From: Alphaproteobacteria bacterium
GTDB taxonomy: Bacteria > Pseudomonadota > Alphaproteobacteria > UBA7887
Direction: 5' to 3'
DNA: 64,000 nt
Assembly (NCBI GenBank): GCA_965216755.1
Contig: CBDCGL010000011.1
Coordinates: 3,317,536 to 3,381,535, forward strand
A program made the translations under genes and the position numbers. This document shows positions 10,806 to 52,713 of the stretch, piece after piece. The notes beneath the pieces are model-generated. The model was not told the origin of the DNA and ran no database searches. It worked only from the letters and a program-made list of their open reading frames with translations. How positions within the stretch are numbered: the stretch's first letter is position 1; every line of letters starts with the position of its first letter.

Positions 10806-11015
10806 GGGTTGGCTCTGATGTACCCGATCGCCAGCCATCCGAACAGGGGGGCCGCCACGTGGATTACATTGTGTCGGATGGCGCGTGCCGCGCGTGATTT
10901 ATGTTCTTCGTCATTTCCTGGTTACTCATGGCTCCGATTTATGCCTCTATGTCGATGCATAGAGTTTCTTCAGACATTTGACTGTTGCTATAGCCCCGCA
11001 TGACATTGCTTGCTG

Positions 11016-14859: not shown

Positions 14860-15621
14860 ATGATGCGCGCGATTTTTGAACAACTGCTGTTGGTGCCGAC
14901 GGTGCTGGTGTGGATTGCCGTGTTCGGTTTGCTGGTGTGGCGCTGGCGGCGTCTGAGCCTTGCGTGTCTAATCGCCGCCATTGGCGGCTTGTTTGTTTTG
15001 AGTTTGCCCATTGTCGCACGCGCGCTGCTGCTGCCGCTATTGGCGACGGTGACCTTGTATGACGGTGCCGATCTGGCCGGTGATATCATATTGGTTCCGA
15101 CCGCCGGCATATTTCGCGATGTCGAAGGGACGCCTTGGCCGTCGGCCGAAAGCATTCGCCGTGCCAGCCAAGGCCGGCGGATCCAAGTCCAGACCGGTTT
15201 GCCGTTGGCAATTATCGGCGGTGATCCGCAGGGAATCGGTGTCGCAGAGGCATTCGTCGTCGCCGACGCGCTCGGCGAAACGCCGGGGCCAGTCGTGATC
15301 GACGGTGCCGCCGACAACTCGATCGAAACGGCATTTGCACTGGCGCGCATCGTCCGCGAGATCGGCGGTCGCGAGGTCATACTTGCGACCACGCCGACCC
15401 ATGTCGCGCGCATGGCGGCCAGTTTACGCCGGGTCGGCGTGGTCGTTTTGGCCGATTTGTCCGCCCATCCGGCGCGGCAGCCCGTGGCGATCACGGACTT
15501 CCTCCCCAGCGCCGGTGGCCTCGCGCAAAGTCGCCATGTGATCCGCGAATATGCTGCGATTCTGTGGTATTTGTTCGACGGCTCCATTCGCGTTGGCGAT
15601 CTGCGGCCGGCAGCGGGCTAG
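14860..15621 (+). CDS. YdcF/ElyC-like DUF218 family protein (envelope biogenesis associated)
   Basis: 253 aa, N-terminal TM helices followed by a DUF218-like Rossmann-like domain (ILVPTAGIF... VIDGAADNSIETA). Confidence 0.6.
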   Translation: MMRAIFEQLLLVPTVLVWIAVFGLLVWRWRRLSLACLIAAIGGLFVLSLPIVARALLLPLLATVTLYDGADLAGDIILVPTAGIFRDVEGTPWPSAESIRRASQGRRIQVQTGLPLAIIGGDPQGIGVAEAFVVADALGETPGPVVIDGAADNSIETAFALARIVREIGGREVILATTPTHVARMAASLRRVGVVVLADLSAHPARQPVAITDFLPSAGGLAQSRHVIREYAAILWYLFDGSIRVGDLRPAAG

Positions 15622-15636
15622 TAAGGACGTGACACG

Positions 15637-16137
15637 GTGAAGCGCTGGTTTGTGGTTCATACGCGCGCCCATGGCGAACAGCGCGCCTACGAAAACCTCT
15701 GCCGCCAAGGTTTCGACGCTTGGTTGCCGCGCTACCGCAAGAAGCGCCGCCACGCAGGTCGCCTGGAAACTGTTTTGCGACCTCTCTTCCCCAGATATCT
15801 GTTTGTGTCCGTGGATTTGGCGGCCGAACGTTGGCGCGCCATCCTATCGACCTTTGGGGTCGCCGGGTTGGTGGGCGCCGTAGATGGCCCAGAGCCGGTG
15901 CCCGACGGCGTTGTCAACGCCTTGCGTGCGCGCGCCGACGCCGATGGCTGTTTCACGTTGCATCGGGCGGCGACGATGAAACCGGGCCAGCCGGTGCGTA
16001 TCGGCGCCGGCCCCTTTCAAGACATCGAAGGGATTTTTCAAGCCCCTAGCGACGCCGAGCGGGTGGTTATTCTGCTGCAACTGATGGGGCGCACGGTTTC
16101 GATCACCGTGCCGGCATCGGATATCGACGCGCTCTGA
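15637..16137 (+). CDS. NusG-paralog transcription antiterminator, RfaH-like (NGN + KOW domains)
   Basis: 166 aa; MKRWFVVHTRAHGEQRAYENL (NGN domain, compare RfaH WYLLYCKRGQ), PLFPRYLFVSVD (RfaH PLFPNYLFVEFD), C-terminal KOW-like GQPVRIGAGPFQDIEGIF. Encoded inside the glycan island, and an exact ops element occurs at 23100-23111. Confidence 0.8.
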   Translation: MKRWFVVHTRAHGEQRAYENLCRQGFDAWLPRYRKKRRHAGRLETVLRPLFPRYLFVSVDLAAERWRAILSTFGVAGLVGAVDGPEPVPDGVVNALRARADADGCFTLHRAATMKPGQPVRIGAGPFQDIEGIFQAPSDAERVVILLQLMGRTVSITVPASDIDAL

Positions 16138-16255: not shown

Positions 16256-17029
16256 TCAGGCGCCGCGGGCGATGAAAAAGCCGTTGCGGAAATCCGTCTT
16301 GCCGTAAAGAAACGGTTCGTCGTCTGGCGTACGTACGCTGCCGCCTGCGGCCAACAATACCGCATGACCGGCCGCGGTGTCCCATTCCATGGTTGGTCCG
16401 AAACGAGGATATAGATCGGCCTCGCCCAGGGCGACCACACAGAATTTGTAGGACGAGCCGGCCTGGTGCAGACCGGCGACACGAACGGATTTGAGCCAGG
16501 CTTCGGTTTCGGCGCTGAAATGGGAGCGACTGGCGACCACCGTCGCCCCATCCGCCGGGGCGGCCCGAACATGTATGGGTTCGATCGGGCCGTCGCCCTG
16601 CCGGCGAAATGCCTGACCGGGCGTATAGCCCCAGACCAAAACATCTTTGGCCGGCAGCTGCACGACCCCCAGAACCGGCAGGCTGTTTTCGATCAACGCG
16701 ATGTTCACCGTGAATTCGTCGCGGTTCTTGATGAACTCCTTGGTGCCGTCCAGCGGGTCGACCAGCCAAAACAAATCATTGTCCGGAATGCCGGCGGCCA
16801 CCGACTCGGTACTTTCCTCAGACACGATCGGGATATCCGGGGTCAAGGCCCGCAGGCCGTCGACGATGACCCGGTTAGCGGCCAGATCCGCCTCGGTCAC
16901 CGGCGAGCGGTCATCCTTGGTCTCGACGGTGATGCCACGCGCGCGCACGGCCAGGATTTCGCGTCCGGCGCGGCGCGCGATATCGCAAATGGGCGGCGCC
17001 AACGCCGCCAGATCAATGGTATCTGTCAT
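16256..17029 (-). CDS. cysQ: 3'(2'),5'-bisphosphate nucleotidase (PAP phosphatase)
   Basis: 257 aa, inositol-monophosphatase fold motifs ([17 protein letters not shown]). ATG at 17029 overlaps the cysNC stop. Confidence 0.85.
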
Positions 17030-18927
17030 ACCGTGTACTGAAACCGCTGGTCGATATACGTCAAGATTTCACGGGCGCAGTCATCGACCGACCGCGCGGC
17101 CGTGTCGACGACCAAATCCGGCGTCTCGGGCAATTCATAAGGTGCACTGACGCCGGTGAACTCGCTGATTTCGCCCTTGCGCGCGCGCTTGTACAGGCCT
17201 TTGGGGTCACGCGCCTCACAGGTTGCCAAATCAGCCTTGATATAGACTTCATGAAAACCACCCTCCAAAGACAGCCGGTCGGTGGCTTCGCGGGCACGGT
17301 GGCGGTCGGCGCGATAGGGCGAAATAAACGCCGTCAGAACGATCATGCCGGCATCCGCGAACAAGGCGGCAGCTTCGCCAACCCGGCGAATATTCTCGGC
17401 GCGATCTTCCGGCGAAAAGCCGAGATTGGCGTTCAGGCCCATCCGGACATTATCGCCGTCCAGCACATAGACATGGTAGCCGCGGGCGAACATCAAGCGC
17501 TCGACCGCGCGCGCCAGGGTCGATTTGCCGGCGCCGGACAGGCCGGTGAACCACACCACGCCGCCGCCATGGCCGTTCCGCTTGCTTCGCGCGTCCTCGT
17601 CGATCGTGCCGCGTTCTTCATAGACATTGGTCGACTTGACCGTGATCAACGAGCGCTGATCCGGATAGCCTTCCATGCTGACAATGCCGCCGCCGGCGAT
17701 CTCGTAACCGTCGACCAAGACAAAGCGTCCGGTGCGCGGATTGCGGGCATATTCATCCAAAGCGAGCATCGATCGCGCTCGCAGCACGACTTCGCCGACG
17801 GTGTTTTGCTCCATGCGGTCGGCGGCGACATGGTCGAGGGATTCGGAATCGATCGCATGTTCAATCGACTGCACGGTGACCGCCGTTTCGATGGTGTTGA
17901 GCTTGAGCTTGTATTGGTTGCCCGGCGCCAGCGCCCGCTCGCCCAGCCAAAACACACGCGCTCGAAACACGTTTGACTCAACCGGCGGGCGGTCGATATG
18001 GCTGGCAATTTCGCCACGCTCGACAAACAGCTGCTCGTCCAGCGTCACGCCGACCGATTGGCCGGCGCGCACTTCGATCGGTGGGTCGGCGTGCCAGGCC
18101 TCAATCGAGCGGACCCGCGCGGTCTTGTTCGACGGCGAAAACAACAAAGTATCGCCGACGCGCACAATGCCACTTTCGATACGGCCCGCGAAAATGCGCC
18201 GTTCGTCGAATTTGTAGACGTCTTGGACGGCAAATCGCAGCGGCAGATCGGTCGGTGGCGGCAGTGGCTCGAAGCCGTCCAACGCCTCGAGCAGGCCCGG
18301 GCCCTCGTACCACGGCGTGCGTTCGGAATTGACGACGATATTGTCGCCTTCCCGGGCCGACACCGGTAAAACATGTCGCGGTGTCACGCCCAGTTCGCTC
18401 AAATAAGCACAGAATTCCTTCTCGACTTGCGCGAAACGGCCGGCGTCATAATCGATCCGGTCGATCTTGTTGATCACCAGGATCACCTGCGTGATGCCCA
18501 AAAGGTGCAGCAGGTAACCATGTCGGCGCGACTGCTCGCGCACGCCTTCTTCGGCGTCGATCAACAACACCGCGGCGTCGGCGGCCGCGGCGCCGGTGAC
18601 CATGTTGCGCAGGAATTCTTTGTGGCCGGGCGCGTCGATGATGACATAGTCGCGCAAGGCACTGCGAAACCAGATGTGGGCGGTATCTATGGTCACGCCC
18701 TGATCGCGTTCACCCTGCAAGGCATCGGTCAGAAACGCCCATTCGAAAGGCATGCCGCGGCGTCGACACATCTCTTGTATGGCCTCGAACCGACCCTCGG
18801 GCAAACTGCCGGTGTCGTGAAATAACCGTCCAACCAAAGTCGATTTGCCGTGGTCGACATGGCCGACAATGACGATCCGCAATGGATCGCCCAACGGCGC
18901 CACGGGGTGTGTTTTGCGCGCTGCCAT
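17026..18927 (-). CDS. cysNC: bifunctional sulfate adenylyltransferase subunit 1 / adenylylsulfate (APS) kinase (CysN-CysC fusion, NodQ-like)
   Basis: 633 aa; N-terminal GTPase ([11 protein letters not shown]) of the CysN type and C-terminal APS kinase P-loop ([15 protein letters not shown]). Confidence 0.9.
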
Positions 18928-18933
18928 GGCGTT

Positions 18934-19731
18934 CTACATATAGCCATCGGCGCGCAAGCGCTCGAAGGCATCCTCTGCTTCGTGGTCCATTGCGCGCCCC
19001 GACCGTTCCGGGACCCGCGTTGTCTCGAGTTCCGCGATGATCTCCTCGACCGTGCTGGCGTCGCTGTCGATCGGCGACGTGATGTCCTCGTCGCCCAGCG
19101 AGCGATAGCGCTTGCCGTCTTTCGAGAAATACAGATCGACGATCGGGATGTGTTCGCGGGCGATATAGCGCCAGATATCGATTTCCGTCCAATGCAACAA
19201 GGGATGCACGCGGACATGCGTGCCCGGTGGGAAATCGACGTTGTATTGATCCCAGAATTCGGGCGGCTGCTTGCGCACATTCCAGGCGGCATCGATGCCG
19301 CGCGGACTGAACACGCGCTCTTTTGCGCGGGTGCCTTCCTCGTCGCGGCGAATGCCGGCGATAAGGCCCGTATAGCCTTGGCGTTCGATCATCGCCTTCA
19401 GGCCGCCGGTCTTGCGCGCCGCCGAACGGGCCGCGGGCGGTAGCGAGGGATCGATCTCTTCAATCGGCGGACAATCGCCGGTGACCAGATCCAATTCCCA
19501 TTCGCGCGCGTAGCGTTCGCGAAAGGCATACATTTCCGCAAATTTCTTACCGGTGTCGACGTGGACAACCGGGAACGGCACCCTGCCGAAAAACGCCTTT
19601 TTGGCGAGCCAGACCAGAACGTTGGAATCTTTTCCCAACGACCACAGCATCGCCAGATTGTCGATGCGGTTAAAGGCCTCGCGAAAAATATAGACGCTTT
19701 GGCTTTCCAGCCGGTCTAAATGTGATGTCAC
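18934..19731 (-). CDS. cysD: sulfate adenylyltransferase subunit 2 (CysD/NodP)
   Basis: 265 aa; LESQSVYIFREAF ... PAPS-reductase-like PP-loop (LWSLGKDS). GTG start at 19731. Confidence 0.88.
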   Translation of the reverse strand: MTSHLDRLESQSVYIFREAFNRIDNLAMLWSLGKDSNVLVWLAKKAFFGRVPFPVVHVDTGKKFAEMYAFRERYAREWELDLVTGDCPPIEEIDPSLPPAARSAARKTGGLKAMIERQGYTGLIAGIRRDEEGTRAKERVFSPRGIDAAWNVRKQPPEFWDQYNVDFPPGTHVRVHPLLHWTEIDIWRYIAREHIPIVDLYFSKDGKRYRSLGDEDITSPIDSDASTVEEIIAELETTRVPERSGRAMDHEAEDAFERLRADGYM

Positions 19732-21904: not shown

Positions 21905-22843
21905 CTATTCCGTGGCGATCATGTCGCGATAGGTTTGGTCGAGCCGTTCAAATAGCTCGTCGCACATTTGTTGAATGCGTGGATCGCGTGCCGCGAACGG
22001 GCTTTTGCGCACCGATGTGGCGAAGATCGACGACAGGAATCGTGGTGACAGCTTGCAACCGATCGCTTCAAAAATGCGCGCGAAACTGGTTTCTGGTTGG
22101 GCGACCAGATCCTCGTATTTGACCAGTAACACGCGCGGATTGCTGTCCAGCGCTTGGGCGAAATAGAACTGATTGCGCAAATACCAAAACACCGCCGCGG
22201 CGTCTTCGGCGGGCATATCGTCGGCATATAATTCCGAGACGCGCGCGATCAGCGCCGGTGTCAACCGTTCCGCGCGCCAGCCGAGCTTGGGCCACGCGCC
22301 GTCGCGGATCCATCGCAGAACGTCTTTTTGATGTTCGCCCCAATAGCGCACCGCCGAATTCGCCACATCGCCGTAATGGCGAAAAATCCAGATAGCGACG
22401 GCGCGCGAATCCAGTTCCAAGATCCGATCCGCCGCTTGGGAATTCATGATCGGCTTAAACGCGATGGTCGGCGCATGGCTGTGCGCGATCAGACCCTTAA
22501 TGGTGTCCGCATCGCGCAGCAGTCCGTATTTCAAGGCCGCGTTGGTGCCTTCCGGATAAACCCAAATCTCCGGCGATTGATCCAAGATCTCGCCCAGCAT
22601 TGTGGTGCCTGATCGTTGGCAACCCAGAATGAAGACGGGTGTTTTCGGTTGGTTGGCCCGATAGCGCAGGCGTTGCCACAGATATTTGCGCGCCAATTTC
22701 AGGCGCGTGGCGGCCGCGCGCCAAGCCCGCCCCATGGTCATCGGGTCAGGTTCCGGGCCCTGAATGCGCAAATCATAGTTGCCGAATTCAGATTGCGGGC
22801 GCGTCTCGTGTCTGTCGTCCGAATCCGAGACCTTGATGTTCAT
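21905..22843 (-). CDS. PAPS-dependent sulfotransferase
   Basis: 5'-PSB motif FILGCQRSGTTMLGEIL and downstream 3'-PB-like region. ATG at 22843. Divergent from the mega-operon promoter region. Confidence 0.7.
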   Translation of the reverse strand: MNIKVSDSDDRHETRPQSEFGNYDLRIQGPEPDPMTMGRAWRAAATRLKLARKYLWQRLRYRANQPKTPVFILGCQRSGTTMLGEILDQSPEIWVYPEGTNAALKYGLLRDADTIKGLIAHSHAPTIAFKPIMNSQAADRILELDSRAVAIWIFRHYGDVANSAVRYWGEHQKDVLRWIRDGAWPKLGWRAERLTPALIARVSELYADDMPAEDAAAVFWYLRNQFYFAQALDSNPRVLLVKYEDLVAQPETSFARIFEAIGCKLSPRFLSSIFATSVRKSPFAARDPRIQQMCDELFERLDQTYRDMIATE

Positions 22844-22988
22844 GGTCGGGACGTTTTTTGGGATCCGCTGTTTGGTGCGGCGAAGGGCGAAGTTGGTCCA
22901 GAATATAGAGGCCACACCGGTGAAGACAACGCCGCTTTGCGGGCGCCGAGTCGGACGCGCGCGAGCTTTTGTTTGAAGCTTGACCTGG

Positions 22989-23027
22989 CGTTCAAATTAT
23001 GAACACCTTTCGCGTTCATAATGTGAA
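22989..23027. promoter_or_regulatory. pair of 15-bp palindromic operator-like sites, GTTCAAATTATGAAC (22989-23003) and GTTCATAATGTGAAC (23013-23027); a -35-like TTGACC lies at 22979-22984
   Basis: Read directly. Both sites have perfect GTTCA/TGAAC outer half-sites with AT-rich 5-bp centres, centres 24 bp apart. Located in the divergent promoter region between the sulfotransferase (-) and the mega-operon (+), about 75-120 bp upstream of the ops element. Confidence 0.45.
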
Positions 23028-23099
23028 CGCATTGCCGCGCCCCGGCGCGGCAGGGTTTGCCTCAGACGCTCTAACCTGGTGAAGCCTTTCACCCGGAAT

Positions 23100-23111
23100 G
23101 GCGGTAGCGTG
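23100..23111 (+). promoter_or_regulatory. exact ops (operon polarity suppressor) element GGCGGTAGCGTG, the RfaH recruitment site, 21 nt upstream of the first ATG of the mega-operon
   Basis: Perfect 12/12 match to the canonical ops sequence on the coding strand of the leader. The first gene lacks a recognisable SD, as expected if RfaH couples the ribosome. An RfaH-like gene is present at 15637-16137. Chance expectation of an exact 12-mer in 2 x 64 kb is about 0.008. Confidence 0.75.
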
Positions 23112-23132
23112 CCCCGCGGCCGTCAATTGTTC

Positions 23133-24272
23133 ATGATACCCAGCTCGCAAACAACCTATGTTCGGCAAACGCCATTGCCGGCAACGGGTGCGCCGTGGCC
23201 GCGTCGCGCGGCGACCGACTTGTGGCGGCATTTCGTCCGGCGCCTCTATCGGAGCCCGCGTTTGGCGGTGACCGAGGCCGACGTGGTGCAGGCCGCGCGG
23301 CCGCGCGATGTCGGGGCGGAAAGCATCAATATTTGCAATGCCCGGTGCACGTTTTGCGGCTATGGCAAGGGGCCTGACGGCAAGGCCGCGGACGCGCGGC
23401 GCAAGGGCAAGTTATCCGCGGACGTGTTTCGTCACACTTTGCGGCTTTACTCTGCCGCGGGCGGCGGTGTCTTCGCCCTGTCGCCGATCTTGGGTGAAGT
23501 GTCGGCGGACCCGCGCTGGCTCGACATGGTGCGCGAGGCGCGCAGCTTCGACAACATCACCGGTGTCAGCTGTTTCACCAATGCCATCCTCCTGCATCGC
23601 TTCGGCGCCGATGCCATCGTCACCGCGGGCATCACCCATATGGCGTTGTCAACCTCGCTTGGCTCGGCGGAACAGTACCGGCGGCTCTATGGGGTCGACA
23701 AATATGATCAGGTGGTGGCCAACATTCTGGACCTGTTGCGTGCCAACCAGCGCCATGGCGCGCCGGTCGATATCAGCATTCATTTGCGCATCGACAAGCC
23801 GTTTTCGAGATTCTTTCGCTCGGACATTTATGCCGAACTGCTGAAATATGTGCCGGCGTCGCGTATTCAAATCTTGGATGATGGCTGGGACGATTTCAAA
23901 GGCCTGATTGGTTCGGACGGCCTGCCCGGTGGTCAACAGTTCAAGGTTCAATATCCAGACAAATCTGTGCCGTGCTATGCGATTTATAGAAAGTTGCAGG
24001 TGCTGAAGGACGGCACGATCCAAGGCTGTTCGTGCCGGATCGAACCCGATCTGTGGGTCGGCAACATCATGGACTTTGACAGCATGGAAGCGGCGTGGCG
24101 CAACCCGGCCTTTGAAGCGCTGCGGGCAAACTGGCATGCGGGCACGATCCCAAACAGCTGCAAGAATTGTAGCCATTACGAGCCCTACACCAATTTGCTG
24201 CGCGCGGCACGACCCGTCACCGTGGCACGGGCGATTGTCGGCAAGCTCAAACGCGTGCTGGGACGGGCCTGA
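23133..24272 (+). CDS. radical SAM protein with C-terminal SPASM-like Cys cluster
   Basis: CNARCTFC (Cx3Cx2C) radical-SAM motif followed by additional Cys motifs (CSCRIEPD ... CKNCSHY). About 379 aa from ATG 23133. Function in glycan modification unknown. Confidence 0.7.
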   Translation: MIPSSQTTYVRQTPLPATGAPWPRRAATDLWRHFVRRLYRSPRLAVTEADVVQAARPRDVGAESINICNARCTFCGYGKGPDGKAADARRKGKLSADVFRHTLRLYSAAGGGVFALSPILGEVSADPRWLDMVREARSFDNITGVSCFTNAILLHRFGADAIVTAGITHMALSTSLGSAEQYRRLYGVDKYDQVVANILDLLRANQRHGAPVDISIHLRIDKPFSRFFRSDIYAELLKYVPASRIQILDDGWDDFKGLIGSDGLPGGQQFKVQYPDKSVPCYAIYRKLQVLKDGTIQGCSCRIEPDLWVGNIMDFDSMEAAWRNPAFEALRANWHAGTIPNSCKNCSHYEPYTNLLRAARPVTVARAIVGKLKRVLGRA

Positions 24273-24899
24273 ATGGCGCGCGAACCGACCGCGCGCGACG
24301 GTCGCGAACAAGCGATTGTTCGCGAAGTTCTTGAACGGATCGACGAATCGCAAGAGATCAGTCAGCGGCAATTGGCCTCGGATTTGGGGATCGCCTTGGG
24401 CATGGCCAACGCCTATATCAAGCGCTGCATTCGCAAGGGCTGGATCAAGGTCAACGAGGCGCCGGCCCGCCGCTATCGCTATTACCTGACGCCAAAAGGG
24501 TTCGCCGAAAAAAGCCGACTGACGGCGCAATACTTTTCTGATTCCCTGCGTTTTTTCGGCCGCGCCCGGCAAAGTTACGATGCCTTGTTCGCGCAATTGG
24601 TGCGGCGCGGCGCGCGCCGCGTGGTGCTGTGCGGTGCCGATGAGCTGACTGAAATCGCGGCACTGTGCGCCCTGAAACACGATGTTAAGGTGGTCGGCGT
24701 GCTGCGCGGCGATGGGCGCGATGATCCGCTTGCCGGGCTACCGGCGATCGGCGAAGCATCTGCGGGCAATGTCGACTATTGGGTGATCGCCAGCTCCAGC
24801 GACGCCGCGCCGCTCTATACGCGAATTGGCGCCGCCAAAGGGCTTGATCATGTTGCCTATCCAGAGCTGTTGCGCCGGGTGGTGGGCGCGGCGCAATGA
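24273..24899 (+). CDS. winged-helix (MarR/ArsR-like wHTH) regulator with C-terminal Rossmann-like domain
   Basis: N-terminal wHTH (REVLERIDESQEISQRQLASDLGIALGMANAYIKRCIRKGWIKV). ATG overlaps the upstream stop (TGAATG region). Confidence 0.55.
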   Translation: MAREPTARDGREQAIVREVLERIDESQEISQRQLASDLGIALGMANAYIKRCIRKGWIKVNEAPARRYRYYLTPKGFAEKSRLTAQYFSDSLRFFGRARQSYDALFAQLVRRGARRVVLCGADELTEIAALCALKHDVKVVGVLRGDGRDDPLAGLPAIGEASAGNVDYWVIASSSDAAPLYTRIGAAKGLDHVAYPELLRRVVGAAQ

Positions 24900-26029
24900 G
24901 CGTGCCATCTGCGCGGCGGCCCTTGCACATGTTTGAACCCGATTTGGGTGATGCCGAAGAGCAGGCGGTCGTGGCGGTTTTGCGGTCTGGCTGGGTTGCC
25001 ATGGGGCCCAAGGTCGAGGCCTTTGAAGAACGATTTGCTGCGTTGACCGGGTCCGGCCACGCGGTTGCAGTGGGGTCGTGTACCGCCGCCCTACATTTGA
25101 CCAATCTGGCCCTGGACATCGGACCAGGCGACGACGTGATCGTGCCGTCGCTGACCTTCGCGGCGACCGCCAACGCCGTCCACATGACCGGCGCGACCCC
25201 GGTGTTCGCCGATGTTGTCGGGCCTGACGATTGGACGATCTCCGCCGATGACGTGGCGCGAAAATTGACCGACCGGACGCGGGCGGTCATCGCCATGCAT
25301 TATGCTGGCCACGCGGCTGACATGGATCGCCTGGCGGCGGTGTGCCAAAAGGCTGATGTCGACTTGATCGAAGACGCCTGCCACGGTCTGGGTGGGCAGC
25401 TTGGTGATCGCGCGCTCGGCGCCATCGGTCGAGCCGGATGTTTTAGTTTCTATAGTAATAAATTGATCACCACCGGCGAGGGCGGCATGGTGACCACCGA
25501 TGACCAAGCGCTGGCGGAACGGATCAAACGCTTGCGTTCGCACGGCATGACCGCGACGGCGATCGATCGCGTGCGCGGTGCCATGATCTATGACGTGACC
25601 GAACCTGGCCTCAACTATCGTCTGGATGACCTGCGCGCGGCCCTGGGCCTGGCACAGTTGGATCGGATCAATGACAAATTGGCCCGTCGGCACGAATTGG
25701 TCGCCCGATACGAGTCGCGCTTGGCGGTTATGGACGGCGTCGCAACGCCCGATTGCGGCCGGCGCGGTCGCTCGGCCCACTATCTGATGCCGGTGCGGCT
25801 GACGCAAGCCGATCGTGATGCGGTGCGTCGCCGATTGCAGGCCGATGGCATTCAAACGTCGGTGCATTACCGCCCGGTCCATCAATTTGCACACTATCGT
25901 GATCAGGCCACACCTTTGCCGCTGACCGAGGACATCGGCGCCAAGACTCTCAGTTTGCCACTCTATCCAAGCATGACTTTGGACCAAGTCGACCGCGTCT
26001 GTGACGCCCTGGCCGAGGCCGCGGGATAA
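24896..26029 (+). CDS. DegT/DnrJ/EryC1/StrS family PLP-dependent sugar aminotransferase (LegC/PglE-like)
   Basis: 377 aa; aspartate-aminotransferase fold type I sugar aminotransferase pattern with conserved Lys region (FSFYSNKLITTGEGG). Confidence 0.85.
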   Translation: MSVPSARRPLHMFEPDLGDAEEQAVVAVLRSGWVAMGPKVEAFEERFAALTGSGHAVAVGSCTAALHLTNLALDIGPGDDVIVPSLTFAATANAVHMTGATPVFADVVGPDDWTISADDVARKLTDRTRAVIAMHYAGHAADMDRLAAVCQKADVDLIEDACHGLGGQLGDRALGAIGRAGCFSFYSNKLITTGEGGMVTTDDQALAERIKRLRSHGMTATAIDRVRGAMIYDVTEPGLNYRLDDLRAALGLAQLDRINDKLARRHELVARYESRLAVMDGVATPDCGRRGRSAHYLMPVRLTQADRDAVRRRLQADGIQTSVHYRPVHQFAHYRDQATPLPLTEDIGAKTLSLPLYPSMTLDQVDRVCDALAEAAG

Positions 26030-26650: not shown

Positions 26651-27639
26651 CGCACCTGATCCAGGCGTGCGACGTTTTGTTTGTCGTCGATGCGTCGGCG
26701 GATGTTGGGTTCGGCCACGCCGCGCGGTGCTTGCACCTGGCAGATCTGGTGCGGCAGCGCCGGCCGCGCGCAGGTATCGCGTTTCAGGGGTCATTCACCG
26801 ATGCGGCGCAGGTGCGCATCGCCAGGGCCAAGATTGACATTGTCGCGACAGACCATCGCGTTAACGCGCCGATTTGTTTCGTCGATCGATTGGCCACGCC
26901 GGACAACGCGGACATTTGTGATCCGGCGCAAATTCGTGACCTGCAACAACGCTGTGGCCGGGTGGTCTACATGGCGTCTGGTGTCCGGGCACCAGAGCTT
27001 CCTGACGGCGTGATCTGTATCGGTTATCAACCAGGCGGGCCACCTGAGCGGCCGCCGTGGCTTTTGTGGGGGTGGCGCTTTGCGCCAGTGCCCGAGGGGT
27101 TTTCGCGGTTGGCTGAAACCCCGCCTGAGCACGGGTCGGTGCTGATCGCGCTCGGCGGTGGCGCGGACGCGGCCACGCTGCGCCGCGTTGTCGACGCTGT
27201 GCGCGCGACGGACCAGGCTGCAAAGATCGATATTCTGGGGTCGCCGGTATGGCGGAGCGATCTTGTGGACGCGATCGGCGCAGACCGGATTTTGTGGCAC
27301 AAAGATGTGCCCGACGTGCGCCCCTTGTTGGCGGGCGCAGCGTTGGTCGTTGCCAGCCAGGGCAACTTTGCCTATGAAGCGATGGCCGCCGCGCGACCGT
27401 TGGTAATTCTGGGGCTCAAGGCATTTCAAGCCAATATCGGGCATCGTCTGGCTGAGGCCGGCCTTGCGGTCTATGGCGGCACCGGTACGGCACAAGACAG
27501 TGCGCGTTTGGCGTCGGCGTTGGCGCGGGGTCGTGCAGACGCGGCGGCGTTGCGCGCGACCATGCGCGAGACGATTGATGATCGGGGCTTTGTGCGCATC
27601 GCCGATCAACTTCTGGAAGATCGTAGGGTGACCGTGTGA
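26647..27639 (+). CDS. PseG-like UDP-sugar hydrolase (GT28/MurG-like C-terminal domain)
   Basis: 330 aa; N-terminal VDASADVGFGHAARCLHLA (GxGHxxR-type motif of PseG-family nucleotidases), GT-B like. Confidence 0.6.
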   Translation: MTHLIQACDVLFVVDASADVGFGHAARCLHLADLVRQRRPRAGIAFQGSFTDAAQVRIARAKIDIVATDHRVNAPICFVDRLATPDNADICDPAQIRDLQQRCGRVVYMASGVRAPELPDGVICIGYQPGGPPERPPWLLWGWRFAPVPEGFSRLAETPPEHGSVLIALGGGADAATLRRVVDAVRATDQAAKIDILGSPVWRSDLVDAIGADRILWHKDVPDVRPLLAGAALVVASQGNFAYEAMAAARPLVILGLKAFQANIGHRLAEAGLAVYGGTGTAQDSARLASALARGRADAAALRATMRETIDDRGFVRIADQLLEDRRVTV

Positions 27640-28340
27640 CGGCGTCGGTGGTCGCGGTTATTCAGGCGCGCATGGGATCGAAACGATTACCTGGCAAAGT
27701 GCTGGCGCCGCTGGCTGGCGCGCCTCTGCTGCAGCACTTGGTCGCGCGGGTGCGGCGTTCCCGGCGCCTTGACGACGTGGTTGTCGCGACCAGCGATCAG
27801 GCCGCGGACGATGCCATCACCGCGCTGTGCGCGACACTTGGCGTCGCGTGTTTTCGCGGCAGTGAATGGGATGTCTTGGATCGGGTGTTGGCGGCGGCGG
27901 GCAACGCCGAGATCGTTGTGCGGTTGACGGCCGACAATCCGTTCGTTGATGGCGCCTTGATTGATTATGTGTTGGCCGCGGCGCTGCCGACCATGCCGCC
28001 GGCGGTCTATGCCAGCAATATTGCGTGCGGCGACTTCCCGGTGGGACTCTATGTGGAGGTCGCCGCCAAAGCGGCGTTGCTGGTGGCCGCTGAGAGTAGC
28101 GATCCCGCCGATCGTGAACATGTCACCTGGTATTTGCGCCGCCAACCTGAACGATTTCCGGCGACCGATGTTGGCGCGCCAGGCCGGTTTCCCGATATGC
28201 CGCTGACCATCGACACGGCGGCGGATCTCACAAGGGTCGGCGGGTTGTTCGCCGCGTTCCATGGCCGCGATCCGAACTTCAATTATCGCGATCTTATGGC
28301 CCTGGCCATACCCAAACAGGAAAGGCAAGCGGCGCCATGA
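27636..28340 (+). CDS. acylneuraminate (nonulosonate) cytidylyltransferase (PseF/LegF/SpsF family)
   Basis: VIQARMGSKRLPGKVL N-terminal CMP-transferase motif; 234 aa. Confidence 0.85.
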   Translation: MTASVVAVIQARMGSKRLPGKVLAPLAGAPLLQHLVARVRRSRRLDDVVVATSDQAADDAITALCATLGVACFRGSEWDVLDRVLAAAGNAEIVVRLTADNPFVDGALIDYVLAAALPTMPPAVYASNIACGDFPVGLYVEVAAKAALLVAAESSDPADREHVTWYLRRQPERFPATDVGAPGRFPDMPLTIDTAADLTRVGGLFAAFHGRDPNFNYRDLMALAIPKQERQAAP

Positions 28341-29344
28341 CCGATGCGCTGATGATTAGCCAAACAAAGATTGGTGACGGTGCGCCACCCTATTTGATCG
28401 CCGAAATCGGCATCAATCACGGTGGCGACGTTGGTTTGGCGGCGCGCATGATCAAAGAGGCGCGGGCTGCTGGCGCCCAGGCCGCCAAGTTGCAAGCGTT
28501 CCGCACCGCTGCTTTGGTGGCGCGCACCAGCCCCTATTTTCAGGTGCTTGACGATGCCGCGCTCAGCAAATCGGCGTTGGCGCAACTGGTGGGAGTCGCG
28601 CGCGACGCGGGCGTTGCCATGTTCGCCTCTGTCTTCGATGAAGACAGTGCAGACACCATGGCGGATCTGGATGCGCCGGCGTTCAAGATCGCGTCCGGCG
28701 ACATCAACCATTTGCCCCTGTTGCGCCATGTCGCGGCGTTCGGACGGCCAATGATCATCTCGACCGGCGGCGCGACCATGGGTGATATCGAACGCGCGCT
28801 GTCGGCCGTGTCCCAAGGCGGCGCTGCGCCCGTGGCGTTGCTGCATTGTGTGTCGCACTATCCGACTCCGGCGGCGCAAGCCAATTTGGCTTGCTTGCCG
28901 ACCATCAAGGCGCAGTTCGGTGTCCCGGTTGGCTTTTCCGATCACACAATGGGCGAAGCGGTGGCCCTGGCGGCCGCCGCGTTGGGCGCCGACATCATCG
29001 AGAAACACTTCACCTTCGATCGCGACGCGCCGGGCCCGGACCATGCCTTGTCGTCGGATCCGGCCGGTTTGACGCGCTTGGCTGAAGGGCTGCAGACGGT
29101 TTGGCAAGCGGTCGGCCACAGTCAAAAAATGCCGGTCGAGACCACAGATCACGTCACTCAAATTCGCCGCTGTGTCACGGCGGACGTGGCCATCCCGGCA
29201 GGCACCGAGGTTCGCGCCGACATGCTGGCGGTGAAACGGCCGGGCACGGGTCTCGCGCCGGACGCCCGCGACCTGGTGGTCGGCCGCCGCGCGCGCCAAG
29301 ACATCCCGGCCGAAACCGCCATCGACTGGTCTATGATCGATTGA
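28337..29344 (+). CDS. NeuB-family nonulosonic acid synthase (N-acetylneuraminate / legionaminate / pseudaminate synthase), copy 1
   Basis: YLIAEIGINHGGDVGLAARMIKEARAAGAQAAKLQAF TIM-barrel NeuB signature and C-terminal SAF/antifreeze-like domain. Confidence 0.88.
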   Translation: MTDALMISQTKIGDGAPPYLIAEIGINHGGDVGLAARMIKEARAAGAQAAKLQAFRTAALVARTSPYFQVLDDAALSKSALAQLVGVARDAGVAMFASVFDEDSADTMADLDAPAFKIASGDINHLPLLRHVAAFGRPMIISTGGATMGDIERALSAVSQGGAAPVALLHCVSHYPTPAAQANLACLPTIKAQFGVPVGFSDHTMGEAVALAAAALGADIIEKHFTFDRDAPGPDHALSSDPAGLTRLAEGLQTVWQAVGHSQKMPVETTDHVTQIRRCVTADVAIPAGTEVRADMLAVKRPGTGLAPDARDLVVGRRARQDIPAETAIDWSMID

Positions 29345-29973
29345 TGACGACGGCGGCGGTCAGTGTCGTTGATTACGGAATTGGCAATATCGGCTCGGTG
29401 GTCAACGCGTGTCGGCGTGTTGGCGCCGCGGCGGCCGTGGCCGAAACTGGTGCGGACCTTCGCGGCCAAGCGCCGGCGGCAATCGTGCTGCCTGGCGTCG
29501 GCGCGATCAAATCAGCGCTCCAGGCGTTGCGCGCACGCGGTTTCGAATCGGCCCTGCAGCATCTTGTCCGCGAAAATGGCACACCCTTTCTGGGTATTTG
29601 TGTGGGTATGCAGATCCTGGCAGAACGTTGTCATGAGTTTGGCGTGCATCAGGGTTTCGGCTGGATCGCCGGCCAGGTCGAACGGATCGTGCCACCGTCG
29701 GACAATGTACGCGTGCCGCATGTCGGTTGGAACGACGTGGCGGTGAGGGGGGCTGATCCGGTGCTTGATGGTCTCGACGGTGCCCACTTCTATTTCGTCC
29801 ACTCTTGCGCGTTGCGTTGCAATGGGTCGGTTACCACGGCGAGCGCGGACTATGGCGGCCCGTTTGCGGCGGCGGTGCGCGACGGGGTCGTACGCGGGGT
29901 CCAGTTTCATCCGGAGAAAAGTTCGGGCGCCGGCGAACAATTGCTGGCACAGTTTTTTGCGACCTGTCATTGA
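29344..29973 (+). CDS. HisH-like class-I glutamine amidotransferase (WbuY paralog of imidazole glycerol phosphate synthase)
   Basis: VVDYGIGNIGSV ... LPGVGA ... GICVGMQ (catalytic Cys) ... HVGWN ... QFHPEKS. Real start ATG 29344 (1-nt overlap with the NeuB stop); the ORF-track start at 29101 is a shadow extension. Confidence 0.85.
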   Translation: MTTAAVSVVDYGIGNIGSVVNACRRVGAAAAVAETGADLRGQAPAAIVLPGVGAIKSALQALRARGFESALQHLVRENGTPFLGICVGMQILAERCHEFGVHQGFGWIAGQVERIVPPSDNVRVPHVGWNDVAVRGADPVLDGLDGAHFYFVHSCALRCNGSVTTASADYGGPFAAAVRDGVVRGVQFHPEKSSGAGEQLLAQFFATCH

Positions 29974-29979
29974 GAACCT

Positions 29980-30771
29980 ATGCTCAAACGACGATTGATT
30001 CCGGTGTTGCTTTTGCAGCATGGTTGGATGGTGCGCAGCGAACTGTTTCGAACCCATCAGGTGATCGGCAATCCCGTGGTGCATGTCGAACGGATGGTGC
30101 AATGGGATGTCGACGAACTGATCGTGTTGGATATCAGCGCTGGCGCCGCCACGGATTTCGGTCACAATCGCGACGACTATCGCGAACCGGGGGCGACCGA
30201 CTTGCTGGCGTTCATTCGCAAGATCGCCGCCGAATGTCGTATTCCGCTGACCTTTGGCGGTCGTATTCGGTCGCTTGACGATATGGGCCTGCGGATCCAG
30301 AACGGTGCGGACAAGGTCACCCTGAATACCGCGGCGCTCGACGACCCGGAATTAATCCGTCGGGGCGCGGAAACCTTCGGCGCCCAGGCCGTGGTGGTGA
30401 GTATCGATTATCGCCACGGCTCTGACGGCGCCGTCGTCTTTCGCGACAATGGTCGGGTCAATACCGGGCGTGCGCTCGCCGATTGGGCGCGGTCGGCCGA
30501 AGACCATGGTGCCGGCGAAATCCTGGTTAACGCCATTGACCGAGATGGGGTTGCGAACGGTTATGATTTGGAAACCATTGCCGCGATCGCAGACACAGTC
30601 CGCATTCCGGTGATCGCCTGTGGCGGTGCTGGCCATATGCGCCACTTTGCCAAATGCTTTGAAAGCACCGATGCGAGCGCGGTTGCCGCAGCCAACATTT
30701 TCCATTTTACGGAAAACGCCTATCCGCGCGCGAAAAGATATTTGCGAGGCGAACGTGACGATATCCGCTGA
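29980..30771 (+). CDS. HisF-like cyclase subunit (WbuZ paralog)
   Basis: 263 aa (beta/alpha)8 HisF/HisA family pattern (RLIPVLLLQHGWMV ... IPLTFGGRIRS ... ACGGAG). Confidence 0.85.
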   Translation: MLKRRLIPVLLLQHGWMVRSELFRTHQVIGNPVVHVERMVQWDVDELIVLDISAGAATDFGHNRDDYREPGATDLLAFIRKIAAECRIPLTFGGRIRSLDDMGLRIQNGADKVTLNTAALDDPELIRRGAETFGAQAVVVSIDYRHGSDGAVVFRDNGRVNTGRALADWARSAEDHGAGEILVNAIDRDGVANGYDLETIAAIADTVRIPVIACGGAGHMRHFAKCFESTDASAVAAANIFHFTENAYPRAKRYLRGERDDIR

Positions 30772-31930
30772 AGTAAGGGCGTCGACGGGAATAGCGGACT
30801 TGCCGCCCCTTCGCTGGTGTACGCGCTGCGTCTATCCATCCAGTTCGGCGGTTGCGCTGGTGTTTGACGATAATGGCGTGTGCAGCGGCTGCCGGGTCCA
30901 CGACCAGAAAAAGACCATCGACTGGGATGAACGGCTGGCGTGGCTTTTGGAAGAGATCGAACCCTATCGGCGCCCGTCGGGTTATGAATGTGTGATCGGC
31001 GTCTCCGGCGGCAAGGACAGCTACTATCAGGTGCATTTCGTCAAGGAAAAGCTCGGTCTCAATCCGTTGCTCGTTACATATAACGGCAACAATTATTTGG
31101 ATATCGGCTGGCAAAACCTGATGCGGATGAAGGCCGTTTTCGGCGTCGATCACATGATCATATCGCCTTCGGAAGAACTATTAATTCGCATGAATCGCTT
31201 AGCGTTTCGCATGATGGGCGACATGAATTGGCAAAACCATGCCGGAATCGCCACGGTGCCCATGCAGATGGCCGTGCGCATGGGCATTCCCCTGGTGTTT
31301 TGGGGCGAACATGGTTGGACCGATCTGGGCGGCATGCATTCGATGCATGATCTGGTCGAATATACCGCGCGCTATCGAAAGGATCAGCTGCTGCGTGGTT
31401 ACGATTGGCACGACATGATGGGCGATGAAGAGGACCCGATCGCCGCGCACGAACTCGAGTGTTTCAAATATCCGCGCGATGCCGAAATCGAGTCGGTCGG
31501 CCTGCGCGGGATATTCATTGGCAATTACGATCCCTGGGACGCCAATGCCCACGCCCAATTGGTGATGGAACGCTATGGGTGGCTACCATCGCCGGTGCCG
31601 TTTGAACGCACCTATCGGCGCATGTCGAATTTGGACGACCGCTATGAAAACGGTGCCCACGACTATTTGAAGTATATCAAGTTCGGTTATGGCCGGGCGA
31701 CCGATCACGCCTGCAAAGACATCCGCAGCGGCTATATGAGTCGCGACGAAGGCATCGCCATGGTGAAACGGTACGATCATGTGCGGTCGTCGGATTTGAC
31801 CTATTGGCTCGACTATGTCGATCGCGGCGAACAATGGTTTGACCAAATCGCCGACGGGTTTCGTAGCCCGAAGGTGTGGCGGCGGGACAGCGCCGGGCAG
31901 TGGCACAAACGAAATTTGTGGGACCAATGA
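30755..31930 (+). CDS. N-acetyl sugar amidotransferase (WbuX/PseA-like, PP-loop ATP pyrophosphatase)
   Basis: CTRCVYPSS...GVCSGC zinc-ribbon, SGGKDS PP-loop. Start assigned to GTG 30755, preceded by GAGG SD; alternative TTG 30800. Confidence 0.8.
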   Translation: MTISAEVRASTGIADLPPLRWCTRCVYPSSSAVALVFDDNGVCSGCRVHDQKKTIDWDERLAWLLEEIEPYRRPSGYECVIGVSGGKDSYYQVHFVKEKLGLNPLLVTYNGNNYLDIGWQNLMRMKAVFGVDHMIISPSEELLIRMNRLAFRMMGDMNWQNHAGIATVPMQMAVRMGIPLVFWGEHGWTDLGGMHSMHDLVEYTARYRKDQLLRGYDWHDMMGDEEDPIAAHELECFKYPRDAEIESVGLRGIFIGNYDPWDANAHAQLVMERYGWLPSPVPFERTYRRMSNLDDRYENGAHDYLKYIKFGYGRATDHACKDIRSGYMSRDEGIAMVKRYDHVRSSDLTYWLDYVDRGEQWFDQIADGFRSPKVWRRDSAGQWHKRNLWDQ

Positions 31931-35212: not shown

Positions 35213-36368
35213 GGTGGAGCGGCGCTACGATATCCCTTTGAGCGTGCCGGATTTGCGCGGCCGCGAACGCGAGTATCTGACTCGTTGTGTCGACGAGAAT
35301 TGGGTGTCGACCGCCGGGCCATTCGTCGATCAGGTCGAAGATGGTTTGGCGGCCATAAGTGACCAAGACCACGCCGTGGCGACTTGTACGGGGACCGCGG
35401 CGCTGCATTTGGCGTTATTGGCGGTGGGGGTCAAGGCCGGCGACCTGGTCATCGTGCCGGATTGGACATTCGGGGCAACAGCGAACGCGGTGTATCATGC
35501 CGGGGCGACGCCGCTTTTGGTCGATGTGCAATCAACCTGTTGGACCTTGGATCCGGCGCGGGTCGAAGATGTGCTCAACACGCGCGCAGTGGCGGCGGTC
35601 ATCGCCGTTGACGCGCTCGGGCATCCGGCTGACATGGACGCGCTTGGCGCCGTGTGCCGCGACCACAATGTGCCGTTGATTGAAGATGCCGCTGGTGCCA
35701 TTGGCGCGCGCTACAAGGGGCGCCCGGCCGGCGGCTTGGCCGATGTCGGCATCTATTCGTTCAACGGCAACAAGACCATTACCGCGGGTGGCGGCGGCGC
35801 GGCGGTGACCAATCGCGACGACTATGCAACGCTTATGGCTCAACTGGCGGTGCATCGGGTCAGCGACGCCAGCCGTGCGCCCGGCGGGTTCTATCGCTAT
35901 GACGTGATCGGCTTCAACTATCGCATGACCAATATCAGCGCCGCGCTGGCGTTGGCGCAATTGGAGCGGTTGGATCAGATGTTGGCGCGCAAAAGGGCGA
36001 TTGCAGCCTGTTACGACCAGGGCCTGGCCGGACGCGACGACCTGCGGCCCATGCCGCGGGCGGCGTGGGCGGACCCGAACTGCTGGATGTATTCGGTCAT
36101 GTGCGGGTCGGCGGATGATGCGGACCGCCTGGTCCGCCATTTGGAACAGCAGCGCGTGCAGGCACGGATATTTTGGCAGGCCCTGTCCTCACAAACGGCG
36201 TACGATTCGGCGCCGCGCGACATTGGCGGGGTGGCACAAGCGATCGGTGCCCGAACGGTCGCCTTGCCATGCAGCAGCAATCTTACCGAAGATCAACAGC
36301 ACTATGTGCTCGGGTTGCTCCGCGAATGGCAGGGCAACCCGGTGGCGGAGCTGGCGCAGGCTTCATGA
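35196..36368 (+). CDS. DegT-family PLP-dependent sugar aminotransferase (LegC-like)
   Basis: IPLSVPDLRGREREYLTRCVDENWVS N-terminal DegT signature, FNGNKTITAGGGG Lys region. Start ATG 35196 (alternative GTG 35214). Confidence 0.85.
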   Translation: MVGRLKVERRYDIPLSVPDLRGREREYLTRCVDENWVSTAGPFVDQVEDGLAAISDQDHAVATCTGTAALHLALLAVGVKAGDLVIVPDWTFGATANAVYHAGATPLLVDVQSTCWTLDPARVEDVLNTRAVAAVIAVDALGHPADMDALGAVCRDHNVPLIEDAAGAIGARYKGRPAGGLADVGIYSFNGNKTITAGGGGAAVTNRDDYATLMAQLAVHRVSDASRAPGGFYRYDVIGFNYRMTNISAALALAQLERLDQMLARKRAIAACYDQGLAGRDDLRPMPRAAWADPNCWMYSVMCGSADDADRLVRHLEQQRVQARIFWQALSSQTAYDSAPRDIGGVAQAIGARTVALPCSSNLTEDQQHYVLGLLREWQGNPVAELAQAS

Positions 36369-41292: not shown

Positions 41293-41314
41293 CGGCCGGC
41301 CTGTTAGGAAATCC

Positions 41315-52702: not shown

Positions 52703-52713
52703 CCGTGCGCGTG

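Follow-up and report, generated by a model that had tools for sequence, protein, structure and literature searches.

A 64,000-nucleotide stretch of alphaproteobacterial DNA (contig CBDCGL010000011.1 of assembly GCA_965216755.1; referred to here as the window) carries, at positions 23133 to 24899, two adjacent genes encoding a radical S-adenosylmethionine (SAM) enzyme, which we call open reading frame (ORF) A, and a winged helix-turn-helix (wHTH) regulator, which we call ORF B. The locus is the head of a ~40-kb glycan operon with genes for multiple nonulosonates. Our best explanation for the locus as a whole, and one that we consider probable, is that it represents a glycan operon head of the RfaH/ops type that bears a conserved control module and into which a gene for a radical SAM enzyme has been inserted. 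The control module, made up of the regulator, palindromic operators of the form GTTCA-N5-TGAAC, and an RfaH-like NusG paralog, varies regulatory themes that are already known; it is widespread but has hardly been described. The enzyme belongs to an uncharacterized family inside a known superfamily.

Two exact palindromes precede the first gene of the unit by 105-143 nt. Predicted operator 1 (GTTCAAATTATGAAC, positions 22990-23004) is an exact GTTCA-N5-TGAAC that fits the family consensus YGTTCAYNNNRTGAACR, and predicted operator 2 (GTTCATAATGTGAAC, positions 23014-23028) is likewise an exact palindrome, lying 24 bp from operator 1 when measured centre to centre. These are the only matches in the 64 kb, even when one mismatch is allowed. 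Taken alone they are not significant (at least two matches were obtained in 44 of 100 shuffles), and they become significant because of the comparison with other loci. For this comparison we used 80 metagenomic loci with ORF B homologs together with eight further loci with a homolog, and two Chelatococcus plasmid loci were checked separately; operators were counted over loci with at least 150 nt of upstream sequence, within 500 nt and with up to one mismatch. The ORF B homolog was preceded by one or more GTTCA-N5-TGAAC sites in 81 of 85 loci, and by two or more in 66 of the 85. Moreover, the intervals from -300 to +30 contain 145 exact palindromes in 27.0 kb (5.37 per kb) whereas the remaining sequence of those loci contains 4 in 590 kb (0.007 per kb), an enrichment of ~800-fold upstream of the gene over the rest of the same loci. 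The extended consensus is itself palindromic. The distances between adjacent sites fall into classes of 22-24, 27-28, and 30-34 bp (84 adjacent pairs); the first of these, which includes the 24 bp of the window, is the commonest. On the plasmids of cultured Chelatococcus, manC is followed by a first palindrome, TTGAC, and a second palindrome, and then by the wHTH gene, gmd, fcl, wzm, and wzt. The original prediction had proposed that the regulator may bind the GTTCA-N5-TGAAC sites, and comparative genomics strongly backs this proposal; from the conservation of the sites we infer that ORF B very probably binds them. A palindrome of 15-17 bp with half-site centres 10 bp apart is what is expected for a wHTH dimer of the MarR type, and conserved palindromes before a regulator's own gene are the textbook mark of a dimeric transcription factor that regulates itself, which ORF B would thus be. 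(Note that nothing on an operator of the ORF B family was found in the literature searched.)

We also considered the idea that another factor binds the palindromes, or that they are mere promoter architecture, and that ORF B regulates something else, in which case the co-occurrence of motif and gene would reflect shared ancestry of the leader. The closest relatives do share the whole leader by descent. However, the motif persists before homologs that are only 38-45% identical, in loci of diverse phylogeny and context in which the rest of the leader and the ops element are unconserved; it is depleted to the same ~800-fold extent elsewhere in those loci; and its geometry (GTTCA/TGAAC with a 5-nt spacer) is the one expected for a wHTH dimer. 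Action of another factor at these sites is, in our estimation, quite improbable, and binding by ORF B is the reading that we retain.

The second element of the module is found downstream of the operators. An exact ops 12-mer, GGCGGTAGCGTG, is present at positions 23100-23111 on the + strand and is the sole match in the window, against 0.07 expected by chance. It carries the ops element, GGCGGTAGnnTG, on the non-template strand of a leader whose transcription we infer, and it forms part of a conserved leader block, CACCCGGAATGGCGGTAGCGTG (positions 23090-23111, + strand), that is kept in nine relatives, among them L083, L084, L088, L090, L091, L099, L110, and L113. RfaH, acting through ops (JUMPStart), controls long lipopolysaccharide, capsule, and other surface-glycan operons, and UpxY-type NusG paralogs are encoded in capsule loci. 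Like the known RfaH/ops systems, the window has a long glycan operon (~40 kb) whose 5' leader contains an exact ops of 12 nt, and an RfaH-like gene nearby. This gene, at positions 15637-16137 on the + strand, encodes a NusG paralog of 166 amino acids that matches the RfaH model TIGR01955 (E 3.7e-35) and that presumably reads the ops element. In 70 of 88 loci the ORF B homolog is linked to an RfaH-like NusG paralog, mostly as a tandem in which the wHTH gene is followed by the NusG gene. The system differs from the RfaH/ops systems already known in that its relatives are alphaproteobacterial, in that the paralog falls under the RfaH cut-off, and in that there is systematic pairing with a dedicated wHTH regulator and its operators. 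A scan of the leader against Rfam with E values up to 1 returned no family, whether JUMPstart or other. Wang et al. (2020, PMC7593976) reported that 18% of rfaH genes are alphaproteobacterial, and they mentioned in passing, with no further analysis, that an HTH regulator accompanies one RfaH cluster, CL4.

Comparison with the nearest relatives suggests that the radical SAM gene is the newcomer at this locus. In eight loci (L083, L084, L085, L088, L090, L099, L110, and L113) the NusG paralog is encoded a few kb upstream, beside a DUF218 gene, as it is in the window. The leader of these relatives consists of a first palindrome, CTTGAC, a second palindrome, a variable stretch, and the CACCCGGAATGGCGGTAGCGTG block, and the regulator is the first gene after ops. 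For example, the order in L083, L084, and L085 is cysD, leader, wHTH gene, and glycan genes. The window differs from this in that genes for LegB-like, GT8-like, and sulfotransferase proteins lie between cysD and the leader, and in that the radical SAM gene lies between the leader and the wHTH gene. In L091 a PtmE-like gene is found in the equivalent slot between ops and the wHTH gene. Because the relatives have the regulator first after ops, the regulator appears to be the ancestral head gene and the radical SAM gene a lineage-specific insertion between ops and the regulator. Thus, the two genes are, as originally proposed, the first two 3' of the exact ops, with no terminator-like site between; the description of the regulator as embedded behind the enzyme does not hold for the relatives, whose operons begin with the regulator gene, and it is the radical SAM gene of the window that is the inserted element.

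Both genes are on the + strand. ORF A (positions 23133-24272, 379 amino acids) runs from an ATG at 23133 to a TGA at 24270-24272 and has an in-frame GTG at 23079. ORF B (positions 24273-24899, 208 amino acids) runs from an ATG at 24273 to a TGA at 24897-24899. The stop codon of ORF A directly abuts the start codon of ORF B (tgaATG), and the stop codon of ORF B overlaps the ATG of the next gene, which encodes a PseC-like aminotransferase (ATGA at 24896). These boundaries agree with the positions first assigned to the two genes. A promoter and terminator scan of positions 22600-25100 found no terminator-like hairpin. Three other gene calls were considered and rejected. The public call for the radical SAM gene (P0001) starts at a TTG at 23262 and gives a protein of 336 amino acids; the ATG at 23133 is preferred because the TTG start would truncate a conserved 'WR..VR' helix that is modelled with a confidence of ~90. 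Starting at the GTG at 23079 would place ops within the ORF, and residues 1-29 of the resulting protein are unconserved and modelled as disordered. The ATG at 23133, which fits the homologs, is the best start. An antisense ORF (positions 23649-24680, - strand, 343 amino acids) that overlaps both genes was rejected as a shadow of the radical SAM frame; it recurs opposite radical SAM homologs elsewhere, as nothing more than a shadow that the sense frame throws in GC-rich DNA.

ORF B is a two-domain protein. A wHTH domain resembling that of the MarR_EPS family spans approximately residues 15-102, a long helix spans residues 74-111, and a small Rossmann-like alpha/beta domain, modelled by AlphaFold2 (AF2) with a predicted local distance difference test (pLDDT) score above 90, spans residues 116-205. 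The protein scores 35.1 bits against HTH_24 (cut-off 21.9) and 63.8 bits (E 1.3e-17) against TIGR04176 MarR_EPS, under the cut-off of 88 for that model. It belongs to a family with 2126 matches at E <= 1e-5, nearly all of them 200-225 amino acids long and with the same two-domain layout. The recognition region of the family is very conserved, and ORF B has both the family core (QR..LG.ALG..N.Y..R...G..K....P..RY.YYLTP.GF.EK.RL) and the ~205-residue two-domain architecture. Cultured long-form members are labelled in RefSeq as just 'winged helix-turn-helix transcriptional regulator'. In a Pfam scan of 26 family members with E values up to 5, no consistent match was obtained for the C-terminal domain.

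ORF B is related to, yet distinct from, the MarR family exopolysaccharide (EPS)-associated regulators of TIGR04176. Those regulators (~105 amino acids) have an N-terminal wHTH homologous to that of ORF B and, like it, stand at the head of EPS or nonulosonate loci, but they are single-domain proteins whereas ORF B bears an extra Rossmann-like domain of ~100 residues and scores under the family cut-off. A short, true MarR_EPS regulator is encoded ahead of legB/legC/neuC on a plasmid of Sulfitobacter sp. W027, and upstream of its gene (locus L172, positions 2930-3015) we found GTTCA-N4-TGAAC together with an ops-like sequence (GCGGTAGC / TGCGGTAGCCGTG). The spacer is thus N4 in this one short member, as opposed to N5 in the ORF B loci, and the single-domain family would, apart from the length of the spacer, share both the half-sites and the ops theme. 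The combination of a wHTH with a Rossmann domain follows the same two-domain logic as the Rex-family redox repressors, and Foldseek gives a weak match to one of them, RSP (3wg9, E 0.03); ORF B, unlike Rex, lacks a GxGxxG motif and any significant match in sequence or fold, so that the likeness is an analogy only. Literature searches on TIGR04176, and on NusG paralogs in combination with MarR, returned nothing relevant.

Several observations weigh against our interpretation of the control module. The NusG paralog scores 121 bits against TIGR01955, under the cut-off of 144.5, even though this model is its best, ahead of those for UpxY, NusG, and LoaP. The wHTH part of the AF2 model of ORF B is of low confidence (pLDDT ~45-55). 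A fold search of the ORF B model against the Protein Data Bank (PDB) gave no significant match, the best E value for the C-terminal domain being 0.011, and this domain contains only one invariant glycine; for these reasons the notion that ORF B senses a ligand is speculative. In the scan of positions 22600-25100 no full sigma-70-like consensus was found on the + strand. Finally, the window is without the 10 nt that carry CTTGAC between the palindromes of its relatives. Instead, CTTGACC is found just 5' of the first palindrome, where leader alignment places a -35-like hexamer (TTGACC, positions 22980-22985, + strand), and the gap between the operators is 9 nt (positions 23005-23013) as compared with 18-19 nt in the closest relatives (for example, L083 positions 7834-7851), or approximately one helical turn less. 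Because the second palindrome in the relatives fills the spacer that follows the TTGAC -35-like hexamer, autorepression is the likeliest mode of action for ORF B, judging from promoter layout; the geometry of repression in the window is uncertain because CTTGAC is absent from between its palindromes.

We turn now to the enzyme, whose residues are numbered from the ATG at 23133. ORF A matches the Pfam models Radical_SAM (PF04055; 35.6 bits, cut-off 29.5) and SPASM (PF13186; 28.0 bits, cut-off 21.5), the latter over residues 281-346. It scores 20 bits against the SPASM model TIGR04085, under the cut-off of 27, and among the radical SAM models of NCBIfam it matches fragments only (Geo_metal maturase, N_Twi_rSAM, MoaA, and others), all far under their cut-offs. 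In an alignment of 27 homologs with identities down to 25%, the CX3CX2C motif (CNARCTFC, residues C68, C72, and C75; codons at positions 23334-23357, + strand) is invariant, as is the glycine (G121) of a GE motif. Toward the C terminus this alignment has precisely five invariant cysteines, in the pattern C281-X12-G-X4-C299-X-C301 followed by C343-X2-C346 (positions 23973-24170, + strand). The segment C281-X12-G-X4-C299 corresponds to the CX9-15GX4C start of the SPASM motif. The remainder of that seven-cysteine motif, namely the CX2CX5CX3C half and the trailing cysteine, is absent both from ORF A and from the alignment; because the CX5CX3C...C half is lacking, only one auxiliary [4Fe-4S] cluster should be capable of being ligated.

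The AF2 model of ORF A (pLDDT 89.7, predicted template modeling score 0.86) has the partial (beta/alpha)6 TIM-barrel core fold, preceded by a segment of ~60 residues with one helix. The top Foldseek matches of this model are BlsE, DesII, SuiB, and BtrN, and the B12-dependent methylases and AprD4 score far lower. BtrN, the butirosin 2-deoxy-scyllo-inosamine dehydrogenase, is the archetypal 'twitch' radical SAM enzyme. ORF A has four cysteines equivalent to the auxiliary-cluster ligands of BtrN, together with the beta-hairpin and helix of a twitch domain, and its auxiliary region aligns with the BtrN twitch domain in a profile search of PDB sequences, with C299 opposite the cysteine of BtrN LPCFEDF and C343/C346 opposite BtrN CKNC. 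(Note that a search of PDB sequences with the single protein gave no match, so that the profile search was required.) Taken together, the cysteine pattern and the alignment with BtrN assign ORF A to the one-auxiliary-cluster, or twitch, type of the SPASM/twitch clade, with an extra invariant cysteine. The original prediction had described ORF A as a radical SAM/SPASM enzyme and had raised the prospect of a degraded pseudogene or of a CxxxCxxC motif unrelated to the radical SAM core. Homologs align over the full length with no frameshift and the model is of high confidence, so that ORF A is not a pseudogene, and the motif, invariant in a protein that exceeds the PF04055 cut-off, is genuine. The SPASM part of the description stands insofar as there is an auxiliary cysteine cluster and a Pfam SPASM match; the domain is not a full SPASM domain, having five cysteines without CX5CX3C and aligning with the twitch domain of BtrN.

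Set beside the enzymes of solved structure, ORF A is only ~15% identical to BtrN, SpeY, DesII, and BlsE. It departs from this group by an additional helix at the N terminus, a long helical tail at the C terminus (residues 352-379), a long insertion between the barrel and the hairpin, and a fifth invariant cysteine two residues after the second ligand. Moreover, it is found in primary cell-surface glycan clusters whereas the BtrN group is found in antibiotic clusters. With the SPASM enzymes anSME, SuiB, ChlB, and PqqE, ORF A shares the Pfam SPASM match above cut-off, the CX12GX4C start, and similar fold scores; unlike them, it lacks the CX2CX5CX3C...C half, a RiPP recognition element (RRE) domain, and a peptide or sulfatase partner. 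The family is small, with 85 clusters at E <= 1e-5 in a database of 5.8 billion proteins, and most of these clusters are 45-62% identical, metagenomic, and named no further than 'radical SAM/SPASM'.

The genomic context of the family was assessed in 82 loci, of which 80 came from a scan of representative genomes and two from the Ferrovibrio homolog P0011; proteins of the window served as tblastn probes against these loci. Close relatives, at least 43% identical, are encoded in Rhizobium-labelled, Rhodospirillaceae, Pelagibacteraceae, Magnetocorallium, and other alphaproteobacterial metagenome-assembled genomes, in Ferrovibrio, and in a Sulfurimonas single-amplified genome. They usually lie within 10 kb of genes for NeuB, a cytidylyltransferase, a PseB-type dehydratase, or a fused ATP-binding cassette (ABC) exporter, and the Pfam-labelled contexts contain glycosyltransferases, aminotransferases, AsnB-like amidotransferases, and NeuB. 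De novo clustering of neighbors in 11 close-family loci revealed no universal partner gene; NeuB and the ABC exporter were each found in 5 of the 11 and a LegB-like short-chain dehydrogenase/reductase in 4. Pfam annotation of extra neighbors in two loci (L011 and L003) gave nothing decisive. The radical SAM gene is often the first gene after an intergenic gap, as in L168-L170 and in the window. In a paralogous clade at 32-35% identity (L016, L017, L018, and L022), the genes that directly follow the paralog are those of an ABC exporter and a legionaminic-type set, and in three of these loci (L016, L018, and L022) an ORF B homolog is encoded ~5-7 kb upstream of the paralog. In the fourth, L017, no wHTH homolog was detected within the locus; here the paralog heads the ABC exporter and legionaminic-type operon, and the palindrome TTGACGTTCATCATCTGAACGATATAAG is found inside a promoter-like site 216 nt upstream of it (positions 9770-9800). 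A distant homolog (22.5% identity over 79% of the query) is encoded on the 36-kb plasmid of Brachyspira hyodysenteriae WA1 (NC_012226.1, positions 10921-11808), a plasmid that we take to carry rfb and glycosyltransferase genes.

We think it reasonably probable that ORF A tailors a glycan or a sugar. A sugar is proposed as the class of substrate because of the genomic context of the family, and the chemistry is proposed because the closest solved folds are those of BtrN, SpeY, DesII, and BlsE, the reactions of which begin with abstraction of a hydrogen atom from a sugar. ORF A would use a SAM-binding [4Fe-4S] cluster held by the CX3CX2C motif, a BtrN-type auxiliary cluster held by C281, C299, C343, and C346, and the fifth invariant cysteine, C301, and its substrate for hydrogen-atom abstraction would most likely be a sugar, in the form of either a nucleotide-sugar or an intermediate on the way to a nonulosonate. 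The outcome could be an oxidation, by a dehydrogenation like those of BtrN and SpeY, or an inversion, by an epimerization in which C301 may act as the hydrogen donor. These two outcomes seem to us the likeliest, although our confidence in a dehydrogenation or an epimerization specifically is low. The enzyme was said at the outset to have no obvious role in known nonulosonate pathways, and in keeping with this the literature searched links no radical SAM enzyme to nonulosonic acids: combining radical SAM with nonulosonic, pseudaminic, or legionaminic acid returned nothing relevant.

Four chemistries had originally been put forward for ORF A, and two of them are now disfavored. One that loses ground is that of a maturase resembling the anaerobic sulfatase-maturating enzymes (anSME), which would make formylglycine in a sulfatase acting on a glycan whose sulfation would be accounted for by the two sulfotransferase genes and the genes for supply of 3'-phosphoadenosine 5'-phosphosulfate (PAPS). 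Such an enzyme requires a second auxiliary cluster, which the five invariant C-terminal cysteines, without CX2CX5CX3C, should not allow; moreover, there is no anSME model among the NCBIfam matches of ORF A, no sulfatase domain among the annotated genes of the window or of the homolog loci, and no match by tblastn to the sulfotransferases of the window in the other radical SAM loci. We regard this role as extremely improbable. The other is that of a B12-type C-methylase, which requires a B12-binding domain, and neither Pfam nor NCBIfam gave a match to such a domain in ORF A. Radical SAM C-methyltransferases and deoxygenases do exist for aminoglycosides, the cluster contains several SAM methyltransferases, and rare modifications of sugars are plausible; however, neither B12-type C-methylation nor an AprD4-like dehydration is supported by the domains or by the ranking of folds, and we consider action of ORF A as a C-methyltransferase or AprD4-like deoxygenase on a nonulosonate to be unlikely. 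We also weighed a role as maturase of a ribosomally synthesized and post-translationally modified peptide (RiPP) that would partner the fused ABC exporter frequent beside family members. Both the fold neighbors of ORF A and the adjacency of the ABC exporters speak for this role, but ORF A has no RRE or PqqD-like domain, no conserved small ORF adjoins the family members, the ABC proteins show only ABC_membrane and ABC_tran domains and no C39 peptidase, and the radical SAM genes are always among those for sugar-nucleotide enzymes. A peptide substrate is thus very unlikely in our view, and tailoring of a sugar or glycan is the role that we favor.

Downstream of ORF B, genes for nonulosonic acid and glycan synthesis follow one another on the + strand from position 24896 to at least 63693. 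They encode PseC-like, NeuD-like, and PseG-like proteins, a cytidylyltransferase, NeuB, two WbuX/HisH/HisF amidotransferase sets, and methyltransferases; PtmE-like and LegC-like proteins, a second NeuB, a 2-epimerase, a fused ABC exporter, a sulfotransferase, and a PseB-like protein; and a third NeuB, an ATP-grasp protein, a fusion of a cytidylyltransferase with an aminotransferase, and GNAT, PIG-L, KAS III, AsnB-like, and GT4 proteins. The three NeuB-family synthases are encoded on the + strand at 28337-29344, 36173-37387, and 51665-52702; cytidylyltransferase domains are encoded at 27636-28340, 42298-43269, and 53769-55760, the last being fused to a class-III aminotransferase; and the WbuX/HisH/HisF sets are found at 29101-31930 and 39923-42562. 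There are apparently three nonulosonate pathways in one transcription unit. The KAS III-like gene (57022-57942, + strand) and the ATP-grasp gene (52576-53739, + strand) of the distal operon give a hint that the sugars may bear unusual substituents of the N-acyl or amino-acid kind. On the other side of the leader, a DUF218 gene (14860-15621, + strand) adjoins that of the NusG paralog, and the pair is followed by cysQ, cysNC, and cysD on the - strand (16256-19731; PAPS supply); the same NusG/DUF218/cys block is found upstream of the regulator in L083, L084, and L085. Two sulfotransferase-family genes are present in the window (21905-22915, - strand, and 45107-46078, + strand), the first of which is divergent from the operon and shares with it the intergenic region that contains the operators. 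The sulfotransferases and the PAPS genes suggest that the glycan is sulfated.

We propose that a dimer of ORF B would bind the two YGTTCAYNNNRTGAACR palindromes in the promoter region and would thereby regulate the entire operon along with its own transcription unit, with the small Rossmann-like C-terminal domain serving as what may be the signal-sensing part. After initiation, the ops element of the leader would bring in the RfaH-like NusG paralog, whose gene lies 7 kb upstream, and the paralog would let RNA polymerase read through the ~40 kb. The radical SAM gene, inserted between ops and the regulator, would be the first gene of the transcription unit. A more far-reaching and tentative reading, for which we would give less than even odds, is that the locus joins an undescribed radical tailoring of nine-carbon sugars to a widespread, undescribed two-tier switch of wHTH regulator, operators, and RfaH-like protein. 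In the radical step, for example, a pseudaminic- or legionaminic-type intermediate might be epimerized or oxidized in a single reaction at a carbon that is not activated, which would yield a new nonulosonate isomer or derivative. In the switch, the first tier would be a gate on initiation and the second would license processivity, and the module would comprise more than 2000 protein clusters in Alphaproteobacteria and beyond.

Nonulosonic acids decorate flagella, lipopolysaccharides, and capsules, and they shape the recognition of bacteria by hosts and phages. To our knowledge, the known pathways for these sugars contain no radical chemistry, so that the conservation of a radical SAM family in such loci points to a sugar modification that has yet to be recognized. 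With regard to the regulator, the findings take an anonymous 'wHTH transcriptional regulator' label that thousands of genomes carry and give it a regulon that can be tested, with a predicted operator, a target (its own glycan operon), and a partner (the RfaH-like antiterminator). They would also widen control of the ops/RfaH type to the glycan clusters of Alphaproteobacteria, here with an ops that is exactly of the E. coli type. Both parts are directly testable and, while they break no paradigm, they would annotate thousands of genes.

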